Shown here: positions 24,097 to 27,161 of the stretch, piece by piece
Layout of the letters: every line of letters begins with the position of its first letter
Position numbering within the stretch: the stretch's first letter is position 1
Assembly (NCBI RefSeq): GCF_003428155.1
Contig: NZ_QLIR01000007.1
Coordinates: 30,001 to 62,000, forward strand
Length of the DNA: 32,000 bases
Direction: 5' to 3'
Origin: Fastidiosibacter lacustris
Lineage (GTDB): Bacteria; Pseudomonadota; Gammaproteobacteria; Francisellales; Francisellaceae
Program-made: the position numbers and the translations under genes
The notes under the pieces: model-generated
The model's input: the letters and a program-made list of their open reading frames with translations, nothing else
Databases searched by the model: none
What the model was told of the DNA's origin: nothing

Positions 24097-24578
24097 TCTC
24101 CATACATGAAGAAAAATTTGCAAAATCCTGAGTGAAGCGTTATTTTTTTGATTTCCATAACCTGGAAAAGTACCTTAATTAGCTAAAAATACTTTTCTTA
24201 CTACCACTATTTCTTTAAGGCTTAATTTATCAACTGAACTTTCCCTAATTTTGTAAGAATTTGCTGTTGATGAGCTGCAAATCAAAATTTATCCCTGTAT
24301 CTTAGGGTTGCTAAAAAAACTGGAGCAACTCATGAATGGATACCTTACAGCTTTTACTAACTCACTTGCAAGCATTTTTCAGAAGGAGTCATCAATAAAG
24401 CTGATAGTTGCCAACTTTAATAAACGAAGGGTTTGCAAAAATGATAAATTTAAGCCAAAAAAATCACAAAGCTCATGGCTTCAGATGATTATTGAGCTAA
24501 CTGTCTAACAGAACTTGGGAAAGTTTAGATTAGAGTAAAACGTAACGAAAAAGTAAAATGTAAGGAAATAGTATAAAA

Positions 24579-25727
24579 ATGAATAGAGATTTTATAGAGC
24601 GTCTTTCTCATAATAGTAAATTATATATTGGTTACCCTCCTGCTACGGATTTTAAATATGATTATCTATCTGATGTGCTTAACTATTCCATAAATAATCT
24701 AGGTAACCCTGAAAATTTGTCAAACGCATTTAGTTCGCATGAATATGAAAAAGAAGTGATCCATTTTTTTCTAAAGCTTTACAAAAGTAGTTACCATGAG
24801 TCGTGGGGATACATTTCTCATTGTGGCACTGAAGCAGCGTTGAATGGATGTTGGCTTGGCAGAAACTATTTAAGTGATTCAAATCGTTCAAATTGTATTA
24901 TTTTAGCATCAGAGTATGCTCATTACTGTATAGATAAAATTGCTAATATACTCAATTTACCTTTAATTCGTATAAAAACTGATGAAAAAGGGAATATTAT
25001 AGAAGACGCTTTATCTACAACTTTGAACTTAAATAAAGGAAAATCTGTTATCTTTTTCGCTACTCTTGGAAGTACAATAACCTCATCAATTGACCATATT
25101 GACCTGTTTAAAAAACATGCTGATGCATTTAATATAAAATATTATATTCATGCTGATGCGGCTTTTGATGGTTCGTTTTTACCTTTCACTAAATATCAAT
25201 TAAAGTTAGGTTATGATTTTGACTCAATAAATATTAGTGGTCATAAATTTATTGGCTCTCCAATTCCTTCTGGAATTTTTTTAGTAAATAAAAAATATTT
25301 AAAGAATCGAGAAATTGAGTATGTCAAGAATAATGATTTAACTATTGCTGGAAGTAGAAACGGTATTTCCCCAATATTGCTTTATGAAGGTATACGTAAT
25401 ATTGGTGGATACAATGGTTTAAAAGAAAGGTATATAAAGTGCTTAAATAATGCTAATGAGATCTTACAATATGCCATTGAAAATAATATAAATGCTTGGA
25501 AAAATGACCATGCAATTACAGTGGTTTTTGATCGAGTAGATGATGAAATTATGAAAAAATGGCATGCTCCTAGTTATAAACGATATACAACAATAACTGT
25601 CTTGCCAAAAACAAATTTTAATATGATTAAGGAATTTATTAACGACATTACCTTTTATAAAAATTATAAAAAAACAAGGGACAATACGATCACCTACTAT
25701 CCAAGCAAAGTTTCATCCTTACTTTAA
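24579..25727 (+). CDS. PLP-dependent group II decarboxylase of the Gram-negative histidine decarboxylase (HdcA) family; divergent, substrate unverified
   Basis: 382 aa. IGYPPATDFKYDY, SINNLGNP, SWGYISHCGTE, HADAAFDG, the PLP-lysine motif ISGHKFIGSPIPSGIFLV, AGSRNG and INAWKNDHAITVVF follow the same order as in Morganella/Vibrio HDC, which is ~378 aa. The comparison is from memory. Confidence 0.78.
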   Translation: MNRDFIERLSHNSKLYIGYPPATDFKYDYLSDVLNYSINNLGNPENLSNAFSSHEYEKEVIHFFLKLYKSSYHESWGYISHCGTEAALNGCWLGRNYLSDSNRSNCIILASEYAHYCIDKIANILNLPLIRIKTDEKGNIIEDALSTTLNLNKGKSVIFFATLGSTITSSIDHIDLFKKHADAFNIKYYIHADAAFDGSFLPFTKYQLKLGYDFDSINISGHKFIGSPIPSGIFLVNKKYLKNREIEYVKNNDLTIAGSRNGISPILLYEGIRNIGGYNGLKERYIKCLNNANEILQYAIENNINAWKNDHAITVVFDRVDDEIMKKWHAPSYKRYTTITVLPKTNFNMIKEFINDITFYKNYKKTRDNTITYYPSKVSSLL

Positions 25728-25812
25728 CTGTATTTCCCATTTTCCTTTCCGATTCTGATACCTTGTGATTGCTTTCTAGTACAAACAAAAATCCCTTGAT
25801 CCCTCACTACTA

Positions 25813-25845
25813 TTAAAGGTATTAAAGGATTTTTGAAACCTTTAA
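25813..25845. terminator. Possible shared hairpin between the convergent decarboxylase and ORFan genes
   Basis: TTAAAGGT (25813-25820) pairs with ACCTTTAA (25838-25845). Alternatively TTAAAGG (25822-25828) pairs with CCTTTAA (25839-25845). The stem is AT-rich and there is no clear T-run, so support is weak. Confidence 0.3.
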
Positions 25846-25861
25846 TTATGGGCTATAAAGT

Positions 25862-26941
25862 TTAACGAAAGTTACTGAAACTATTTGAATTATTGTTTTG
25901 ATTTTCTTGTTGTCTTAACCAAAAGAAAAGCTTTAGTTCTCCTGGTTCTGCCTCATTTTGTGAGGTGAGACTTTGAATAAATTTATCTCTGTTGTTAGCA
26001 TCGTTTTTCTTTGTTTCATCAAATTTAACAAGAGGAGGTGTTGACAGGTAGTCAATACTAGAATTGATTTTGTTCACTACATTTTGTACAGCAGCTTCTT
26101 GTGGGTTTTCTTGATTTATTGAACTATAAGTGATTGGTGTATAGTAATAAATATCGTATTGGTTTCCTAATGGAGTAGTCGCGTAGATGCTATCAACCTT
26201 ATTATTATCGCTAAAGTAACATTGTGCATATCTATCGTTACATTCTCTAATAAGTTGCTCTTTTGGAACAGGTGTAGTAAACACCCACTTATCATTATCC
26301 TTACACCATTTCCCAGGCAAATAACCGACTTTATGTTGATAAAATTTAGATAATATAGGGATATTAAATTTTGTGGTAAATAACGTCTTTTCATCTTTAT
26401 CTTTACAGGTAACAAAGGTGTAATCCAAATTTTGTGATAAGAAAAAATCGATATTGAGTGTATCTACCGCCGATTTGCTAAAGAAAAAAGGATGGCAACC
26501 TGTGAAAAAATAAATATTCTCTCTAAAATTATACGCTGTCAAGGCTTTATCGATTAATCCATTTATATAAGGATGGTCGGTAGAAATTCTCAATAGGAAA
26601 TTATAAAGTATAACAAAGCTTACTCCGAATTGGTTTTCTGTAAAATATTTGTTAGATGTTAACAAGTCTCCACCAGCTTTATAAAGCGTACTAGCAGCCA
26701 TTGGTGTAACTAGATTGTCAATAATGAAAGTCATTGCTGTTTTTAGCTCGTCATACGTATCATCTATGTAGCCTATAGATGTTTGCTTTATTGCTTCCGA
26801 TAATATGGAAGAGACAGTATATAAAGCTATTGGCTTTATCGTGCTCTTTACAAGCGGAAAATTTAATTTCGCTATATGGTCAAGCACTTTCTTTAGACGT
26901 TCAGTAGTTTCTATTTTTTTGTTTTGTAAATTGTTTGGCAT
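25862..26941 (-). CDS. Hypothetical protein, 359 aa, with no family recognised (ORFan-like)
   Basis: A long uninterrupted ORF with an AAGGAA RBS 8 nt upstream of the ATG. There is no signal peptide and no TM segment. The N-terminal half looks helical, the middle is Cys/aromatic-rich (GCHPFFF, TCKDKDE, GKWCKDNDKW, RECNDRYAQCYF) and the tail is Asn/Gln/Ser-rich (QQENQNNNSNSFSNFR). Confidence 0.6.
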   Translation of the reverse strand: MPNNLQNKKIETTERLKKVLDHIAKLNFPLVKSTIKPIALYTVSSILSEAIKQTSIGYIDDTYDELKTAMTFIIDNLVTPMAASTLYKAGGDLLTSNKYFTENQFGVSFVILYNFLLRISTDHPYINGLIDKALTAYNFRENIYFFTGCHPFFFSKSAVDTLNIDFFLSQNLDYTFVTCKDKDEKTLFTTKFNIPILSKFYQHKVGYLPGKWCKDNDKWVFTTPVPKEQLIRECNDRYAQCYFSDNNKVDSIYATTPLGNQYDIYYYTPITYSSINQENPQEAAVQNVVNKINSSIDYLSTPPLVKFDETKKNDANNRDKFIQSLTSQNEAEPGELKLFFWLRQQENQNNNSNSFSNFR

Positions 26942-27161
26942 GAATTATGTTCCTTAAAAAATAACCTGAGATTTGTGATTTATCATAGTTAAAAGTTAAC
27001 GAATCAACTTAAGATAATAAATAGCTGCCATCAAAATTAGTCAAATTGTCCTTTACCCTATCCTGATAGGTGAAGGTTTTATGGTATATATTATTCGCAA
27101 GTGGTGTCCATCTACTTTTCGCGTTATACTGATGGCCAATTTAGATCGCCTTTGGTTTAAT

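Follow-up and report, generated by a model that had tools for sequence, protein, structure and literature searches.

A 32,000-nt stretch of the Fastidiosibacter lacustris genome (contig NZ_QLIR01000007.1; hereafter the window, in which all coordinates are given) contains an AT-rich islet between the core genes rsmG and ubiE. The islet carries a gene for a decarboxylase of 382 amino acids (aa) that depends on pyridoxal 5'-phosphate (PLP) and, convergent with it, a gene for a 359-aa protein that belongs to no known family. An initial annotation of the sequence had called this gene pair, at the positions listed below, together with an ORF-poor leader of ~480 nt, and the map of open reading frames (ORFs) agreed with all three. 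The arrangement is identical in a sister strain (GCA_024208055.1; 99.59% identity over 12.5 kb). From the left to the right core flank, the features are:

23374–24096, plus strand: rsmG, 16S rRNA m7G527 methyltransferase, left core flank (PF02527 GidB, E 1.3e-53)
24097–24578: spacer of 482 nt (GC 0.315; 481/482 bases match the sister strain)
24579–25727, plus strand: PLP decarboxylase gene, 382 aa, WP_116963882 (PF00282, E 4.5e-18)
25728–25861: spacer of 134 nt between the convergent genes
25786–25835: imperfect inverted repeat between the two stop codons (19-nt arms, 84% complementary)
25862–26941, minus strand: 359-aa gene, WP_116963883, no known family (no Pfam match)
26942–27161: divergent spacer of 220 nt between the 359-aa gene and ubiE (GC 0.318; identical in the sister strain)
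27162–27917, plus strand: ubiE, right core flank, heading a ubiE-ubiJ-ubiB-HIT block (PF01209 Ubie_methyltran, E 5.2e-104)

Both islet proteins were 100% identical to F. lacustris database entries, WP_116963882 (‘histidine decarboxylase’) and WP_116963883 (‘hypothetical protein’). The Pfam search proposed in the initial annotation confirmed Pyridoxal_deC (PF00282) for the decarboxylase as well as GidB and Ubie_methyltran for the flanks. The start of ubiE is most likely at 27162 because alignments to relatives begin at that position, and rsmG lies directly 3' of rpsJ, an order shared with the sister strain. The 482-nt spacer, in which the decarboxylase gene presumably has its promoter and 5' region, had a single ORF (66 aa, TTG start) that was unsupported and belonged to no Pfam family. 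An Rfam scan of 22.8–27.4 kb (E ≤ 1) detected no RNA element in this spacer, returning just two sub-threshold chance matches that both lay outside it, and its RNA fold stability was marginal (z −2.05). In consensus scans, promoter and terminator matches were no more common than in shuffled sequence. The inverted repeat at 25786–25835 formed the main hairpin on both strands, with a U-rich tail following on the minus strand, and is likely a bidirectional terminator, while the fold z-scores of the whole 134-nt spacer (−0.95 on the plus strand and −1.57 on the minus strand) were not significant. As the two genes are convergent with a terminator-like hairpin between them, they would not be co-transcribed.

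Based on sequence comparison, the decarboxylase was assigned to the group II histidine/serine decarboxylase family, within which it falls in a distinct, uncharacterised clade. It exceeded the PF00282 cut-off (65.6 bits against 27) and scored 383.6 bits on the NCBIfam model NF002748 ‘histidine decarboxylase’ (cut-off 305). The same model, however, scored the proven Arabidopsis serine decarboxylase AtSerDC (8JG7) higher (461.8 bits), and passing it therefore says nothing about the substrate. The best solved relatives were AtSerDC (199 bits) and then the Photobacterium phosphoreum histidine decarboxylase (7ERU; 192 bits). The phylogeny against characterised HdcA enzymes that the initial annotation had suggested was run as a neighbour-joining (NJ) tree, from an alignment of the decarboxylase, its 120 nearest relatives, 7ERU, AtSerDC, and the enzymes of Klebsiella aerogenes, Vibrio anguillarum pJM1, and Acinetobacter baumannii, and it placed the decarboxylase outside the HdcA clade. 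The histidine decarboxylases of P. phosphoreum, K. aerogenes, A. baumannii, and V. anguillarum formed one tight clade, the decarboxylase occurred in a separate, distant clade with Francisella, Pseudofrancisella, and metagenomic sequences, and AtSerDC grouped with a YPY-bearing Rhizobium plasmid protein, away from the decarboxylase. The decarboxylase shared 31–36% identity with the histidine decarboxylases and 32% with AtSerDC, compared to 41% between 7ERU and AtSerDC; judged from these sequences, the clade is further from the histidine and serine decarboxylases than those two are from each other.

The decarboxylase retained the PLP-binding Lys222 (in SGHK), His115 (AHY), Asp193 (HADAA), the loop Tyr249 (IEY), and GSRNG, all of which aligned with their counterparts in AtSerDC and the histidine decarboxylases. 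With the PLP ligands and the catalytic Tyr (roles described in PMC11407765) all present, the enzyme should be active. In AtSerDC and its derivative in tea, CsAlaDC, the pocket residue X of a YPX motif sets the substrate, being Tyr in the former (serine) and Phe in the latter (alanine) (PMC11407765). The decarboxylase has Pro21 at this position, whereas four of four canonical-type histidine decarboxylase homologues have Glu and AtSerDC has Tyr. The clade motif is GYPP[AS]T, compared to GYPES/GYPESA in those four homologues, and Glu was found at YPX in none of the 120 nearest relatives. The residue after GSRNG was Ile in the decarboxylase and Ile, Val, or Leu in its clade, as opposed to the His of both histidine and serine decarboxylases. 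Set against HdcA (Klebsiella, Morganella, and Photobacterium 7ERU), AngH (pJM1), and BasG (A. baumannii), the decarboxylase is alike in its PF00282 group II fold, its similar length, its score above the NF002748 cut-off, and the shared SGHK, stacking His, PLP-N1 Asp, loop Tyr, and GSRNG, but differs in its low identity, its separate clade, Pro for Glu at YPX, and Ile for His after GSRNG. It has the same PLP ligands and YPX motif architecture as AtSerDC, its top solved relative, and CsAlaDC, but X is Pro rather than Tyr or Phe and the protein sits on another branch of the tree.

As neither membership in the canonical clade nor Glu at YPX was found, the decarboxylase was not filed as HdcA, and the ‘HDC-type’ label in the initial annotation over-reads a database name given by an unspecific model. 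Pro at YPX and the separate clade leave the substrate open; on these sequence grounds histidine is a possible though rather doubtful substrate and another amino acid the more probable one. For the ‘YPP’ clade as a whole, which is annotated as histidine decarboxylase, the prospects that it has a different substrate are evenly balanced.

Canonical histidine decarboxylase genes are found with an antiporter, with or without hisS, or in a siderophore cluster (PMC8465708). Both settings were checked directly: in K. aerogenes, an adiC-like antiporter, hdc, and two hisS genes occur in a row, and on pJM1, angH lies between angN and siderophore ABC transporters. Unlike in these two cases, no APC-type antiporter, extra hisS, or nonribosomal peptide synthetase (NRPS) or NRPS-independent siderophore genes turned up when all larger ORFs of the 32 kb were annotated with Pfam; what this annotation did show was two MFS transporters and two regulators, one LysR and one MarR, besides housekeeping genes. 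Within this span, the description of the decarboxylase as an ‘orphan’ holds. Because no antiporter is linked to the gene, the amine product would most likely serve internal metabolism and not a classical proton-consuming acid-resistance cycle.

These results bear on a reading of the enzyme as a true histidine decarboxylase, whose histamine would supply a siderophore made elsewhere in the genome or, with an unlinked transporter, pH homeostasis, and for which the 359-aa neighbour would be irrelevant. It draws on the NF002748 score, the intact catalytic machinery, and a Francisella orientalis homologue that adjoins a his operon remnant. The protein is nevertheless outside the canonical clade and equally close to serine decarboxylase, Pro replaces the Glu that is also missing from all 120 nearest relatives, the NF002748 cut-off fails to separate serine from histidine decarboxylases, and the window lacks antiporter, hisS, and siderophore genes, such that this reading is considered unlikely.

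The nearest relatives of the decarboxylase were metagenomic sequences (74–55% identity), with Francisella proteins at 48–49%. The six loci of the closest relatives that were inspected (74–48% identity) represented four distinct contexts, and the gene was stand-alone in every one: 3' of an SDR gene; 3' of halogenase-TauE-SRPBCC genes; in F. orientalis, 3' of a tilS-like gene and near a decayed his operon; and in Pseudofrancisella, between TauE (5') and katG (3'). The F. orientalis homologue lies near fragmented hisIE, hisF, hisA, hisH, and hisB (all within 8001–13310 of locus L007), the sole context hinting at histidine. In two unrelated contexts, a gene for a TauE/SafE-family membrane protein (PF01925) was located just upstream of the decarboxylase homologue, and this adjacency is a possible clue to the substrate or product of the clade, for example a sulfonated amino acid. 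This arrangement was seen at 6096–9146 of locus L005, 4168–7224 of L006, and 7059–9125 of L009. Neither the TauE nor the his-operon adjacency was adopted as a substrate clue, each being limited to just one or two lineages.

The islet (24097–27161) had a GC content of 0.309, the minimum of all 3,065-nt segments (mean, 0.365; sd, 0.023), and in the windowed check no other 3 kb of the window was as AT-rich or deviated as far in composition. The GC values counted by hand in the initial annotation were about right, but fusA, their comparator, is unusually GC-rich (0.417; typical window genes, 0.35–0.38) and exaggerated the contrast. The decarboxylase gene had a GC content of 0.292 and a third-codon-position GC content (GC3) of 0.206 (z about −3.1 compared to 25 other genes), and the dinucleotide signature distance was highest over this gene (84–87; mean, 49; sd, 15). 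The 359-aa gene was also AT-rich (GC 0.320), but its GC3 was ordinary (0.275; z −0.7); its AT-richness occurs in first codon positions and therefore reflects an amino-acid composition rich in Asn, Lys, Ile, and Phe. The compositional anomaly is centred on the decarboxylase gene, not on both genes.

No tRNA gene was found within 3.6 kb of the gene pair, the repeats detected were all short and at chance level, with none beside the pair, direct or inverted, that would suggest a mobile element, and neither the ORF map nor Pfam annotation identified mobility ORFs flanking the pair. The atypical composition that horizontal acquisition would predict is seen for the decarboxylase, which deviates in GC, GC3, and dinucleotides but may have an intrinsic bias (see below), and at GC3 it is not seen for the 359-aa gene. 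The case for a joint horizontal acquisition of both genes is weak, because the third-codon-position deviation is confined to the decarboxylase, because tRNA, repeats, and mobility genes are absent from the flanks, and because the phyletic partners differ, with the decarboxylase shared with Francisella and Pseudofrancisella and the 359-aa gene with Cysteiniphilum.

The distribution of the decarboxylase is patchy, since no protein of Cysteiniphilum, Caedibacter, or Facilibium was among its 120 best relatives, although their proteomes were in the searched database. An old horizontal transfer or a patchy vertical retention of the gene is possible. It is conceivable, at somewhat less than even likelihood, that the decarboxylase alone is a fairly old horizontal acquisition or a patchily kept ancestral gene, next to a vertically inherited and fast-evolving 359-aa gene, and that their adjacency is accidental. 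This agrees with the GC3 deviation and dinucleotide peak centred on the gene, with the absence of the three related genera from its best relatives, with the metagenomic origin of the nearest ones, and with the identity of the 359-aa protein to its Cysteiniphilum homologues (43–46%), which is like that of UbiJ (46–49%). It has to contend with the observation that in three of four other loci (Francisella, Pseudofrancisella, and one metagenome-assembled genome) the decarboxylase homologue exceeds the adjoining DNA in AT content, which suggests an intrinsic bias, and with the 48–49% identity to Francisella, a level not unusual for genes that these families inherited vertically (UbiB, 54–59%; UbiJ, 25–31%); nor can a donor be named. 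An acquisition of the decarboxylase alone is compatible with the interpretation favoured below, two independent accessory genes, and differs just in stressing horizontal transfer.

Sequence comparisons indicate that the 359-aa gene is a real gene, restricted to the Fastidiosibacteraceae and under purifying selection. In a set of 5.8 billion proteins its family amounted to just four 90% clusters, which came from F. lacustris, Cysteiniphilum, and one metagenome. Two further members emerged when 1.84 billion representatives were searched exhaustively with an HMMER profile, so that the family is known from Fastidiosibacter and Cysteiniphilum as well as from a few sequences that are metagenomic or unattributed. 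Full-length homologues had 43–46% identity with ~100 invariant columns. Between two Cysteiniphilum species, the ratio of non-synonymous to synonymous substitution rates (dN/dS) was 0.28, and the two F. lacustris-type strains differed by two synonymous and two non-synonymous substitutions, with the gene intact in both. As described initially, the family is without a known relative, with no match in Pfam, NCBIfam, PADLOC, PHROGs, or the PDB sequences, and a profile search with the family against PDB sequences returned nothing at E ≤ 10. The idea that the ORF is a spurious or decaying frame in AT-rich DNA could appeal to this lack of any family, structure, or function match and to a full-length structure model of low confidence, but full-length homologues with ~100 invariant columns, the dN/dS in Cysteiniphilum, and intact copies in both strains make it extremely improbable.

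No transmembrane segment was detected in the 359-aa protein (maximum 19-residue hydropathy, 1.08) and inspection found no signal-peptide-like N-terminus; the product is predicted from its sequence to be soluble. A role as an amine membrane transporter was rejected on the basis of this hydropathy maximum, a protein without a transmembrane segment not being a transporter. Its N-terminal half is helical, and at its centre lies a conserved alpha/beta domain with the motif VGYLPGKWCKDNDKWVF. The full-length AlphaFold2 (AF2) model was unusable (predicted local distance difference test [pLDDT], 42.7; four sequences), while the model of the central domain (residues 140–275) had a pLDDT of 63.0, with a core in the 70s–80s. 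Foldseek matches of the domain model in the PDB were weak, the top ones all being to Vibrio thermolabile hemolysin/PlpA, at E 0.009–0.3 and template modelling (TM) scores of 0.36–0.45, the aligned part being unreported. The N-terminal domain of thermolabile hemolysin/PlpA is itself of unknown function, and the modelled fold similarity may serve as a lead only, yielding no function.

At three Cysteiniphilum loci, the 359-aa homologue sits among genes specific to the lineage, with a CS1-type fimbrial operon alongside. These neighbours include a 994–1004-aa protein, a coiled-coil protein, and a 530–542-aa protein with a clear match (E 1.4e-23) to LepB_N, the N-terminal domain of the Legionella effector LepB. 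The latter gene was located as follows:

Locus L001, 3137–4765: LepB_N-domain protein gene, Cysteiniphilum
Locus L003, 3205–4797: LepB_N-domain protein gene, Cysteiniphilum

The cluster with the LepB_N and 359-aa genes is a possible effector island of Cysteiniphilum, a human pathogen that is emerging. In Cysteiniphilum sp. JM-1, a divergent copy of the 359-aa gene adjoins a Na+/H+ exchanger gene. Type IV secretion genes have been reported in the literature for F. lacustris/Nebulobacter and for Cysteiniphilum, and the F. lacustris type strain is reported to be without virD4 and virB5. Because of the LepB_N neighbour and the reported secretion genes, the 359-aa protein can be tentatively regarded, by analogy and at odds clearly below even, as a host- or environment-interaction protein and possibly a secreted effector. 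Like the Dot/Icm effectors of Legionella (e.g., LepB), it is lineage-restricted, with no detectable domain and no predicted transmembrane segment; its Cysteiniphilum homologue lies beside a LepB_N protein, and type IV components are reported for both genera. It differs from known effectors in lacking sequence or confident structural similarity to them and in the reported absence of virD4 and virB5 from the type strain.

A scan for UbiE in one genome per species (Cysteiniphilum, 5; Caedibacter, 2; Facilibium; Francisella, 7; and others) was used to explore the locus in relatives. The ubiE-ubiJ-ubiB-HIT block was kept in all 15 close relatives, while rsmG, rpsJ, fusA, the decarboxylase gene, and the 359-aa gene were found within 10 kb upstream of ubiE in none of them (0/15). 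The upstream neighbours of ubiE differed among four genera (Cysteiniphilum, Caedibacter, Facilibium, and Francisella). In Caedibacter taeniospiralis this place is taken, in inverted orientation, by homologues of the genes for ProQ and the FAD oxidase that occur at 9.2–13.1 kb of the window:

Window, 9205–13146, plus strand: ProQ/FinO-domain gene and 1002-aa FAD-oxidase/4Fe-4S gene
C. taeniospiralis locus L011, 5181–9014, minus strand: the homologous genes

This inverted position beside ubiE points to an inversion or transposition with a breakpoint just upstream of ubiE in F. lacustris. With the region upstream of ubiE so variable, the rsmG–ubiE junction is lineage-specific and the islet lies at a rearrangement breakpoint. 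The rsmG–ubiE interval was considered, and rejected, as an insertion into a conserved site, the junction being found in the F. lacustris lineage only. The comparison of this interval among relatives, proposed in the initial annotation, was therefore informative in part: the sole close relative available carries the islet at 99.6% identity, but other genera have no comparable rsmG–ubiE site. The sister strain is presumably ‘Ca. Nebulobacter yamunensis’, an endosymbiont of Euplotes with 99.38% average nucleotide identity to F. lacustris (PMC9837558), and the possible host association raised at the outset is borne out by this relationship.

The two genes were adjacent only in F. lacustris and its 99.6%-identical sister strain. 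The decarboxylase was absent beside the 359-aa homologues in Cysteiniphilum (the three loci and the divergent copy in sp. JM-1), and the 359-aa gene was absent beside the decarboxylase relatives (0/6 loci). The initial annotation had proposed a horizontally acquired, stand-alone biogenic-amine module with the 359-aa protein as its partner (an exporter, regulator, or modifier), possibly host-directed. The genes are indeed adjacent, AT-rich, and located where the composition of the window deviates most, they are kept together in both strains, canonical partners are absent from the 32 kb, and the organism is conspecific with a ciliate endosymbiont. Homologues of the two genes nevertheless co-occur nowhere else, which was the outcome the initial annotation had itself named as contradicting it and which brings the module close to refutation. 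A partner role for the 359-aa protein is further contradicted by the convergent orientation with a hairpin between the genes, by a sequence without a transmembrane segment (and so no transporter) or any DNA-binding or enzyme family match, and by genome-typical GC3 and a lack of mobility signatures, and the module as proposed is very unlikely. Equally little credence is given to a host-interaction islet in which the decarboxylase belongs to a new specificity clade making an amine other than histamine, with an action on or inside the Euplotes host, and the 359-aa protein is a secreted effector of new fold acting with or alongside the decarboxylase, which is judged highly improbable.

The interpretation favoured here, with moderate confidence, is that the islet holds two independent accessory genes at a lineage-specific breakpoint and not a functional pair. 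The genes would be independently transcribed, with separate histories, and would have become neighbours via the breakpoint upstream of the ubiE-ubiJ-ubiB-HIT block. The decarboxylase would be a stand-alone enzyme of a distinct clade common to Francisella, Pseudofrancisella, and metagenomic bacteria, and the 359-aa protein a soluble, family-restricted product with most likely a role in host or environment interaction. Several points weigh against this interpretation. The adjacency is kept in both F. lacustris-type genomes, such that a lineage-specific functional link could exist, and the anomaly in GC, GC3, and dinucleotides spans the islet and could reflect joint acquisition. The gene neighbourhood was surveyed over 32 kb of the genome, and an unlinked transporter or siderophore cluster may be present. 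Histidine could yet be the substrate, as a curated equivalog model of NCBI names the enzyme histidine decarboxylase and the F. orientalis homologue is 1.1 kb from the decayed his operon. For the 359-aa protein, the structure models are weak, with best fold matches at E 0.009–0.3 and TM 0.36–0.45, and the effector idea draws solely on the neighbourhood in another genus.

Under the interpretation of two independent genes, the islet represents no new two-gene system; what remains is an uncharacterised enzyme clade and an unrelated, family-restricted gene. The automatic label ‘histidine decarboxylase’ covers WP_116963882, its relatives in Francisella and Pseudofrancisella, and the majority of the 120 sequences closest to it in the database, and for the clade it is probably over-specific. 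Because NF002748 cannot separate histidine from serine decarboxylases and the clade is without the canonical pocket residue, histamine production predicted from such labels, as might be done when surveying microbiomes or food safety, could not be relied on in these lineages. The 359-aa protein, for its part, is a candidate member of the near-unknown host-interaction repertoire of the Fastidiosibacter/Nebulobacter–Euplotes symbiosis and of the emerging pathogen Cysteiniphilum.

Several other features of the window were observed. With rsmG, not rplC, directly following rpsJ (22896–24096), the S10 ribosomal-protein operon breaks off after the first of its genes, and the order rpsL-rpsG-fusA-rpsJ-rsmG is common to the window and the sister strain. 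An MFS transporter gene at 13347–14598 on the minus strand is split into abutting ORFs of 299 and 116 aa and probably represents a pseudogene created by a frameshift, in keeping with reports of many pseudogenes in the F. lacustris genome (PMC9837558). At 6050–8004 on the plus strand, a gene for a 2OG-Fe dioxygenase (PF10014) overlaps the downstream MFS transporter gene by 4 nt, and the two look like a small operon. A tRNA-Ser(GGA) gene occurs at 30765–30854, and the alignment between the window and the sister strain ends ~185 nt downstream of it, from ~31040 (~12460 in the sister strain), which marks the segment from ~31040, by sequence comparison, as strain-variable and adjoining a tRNA gene.

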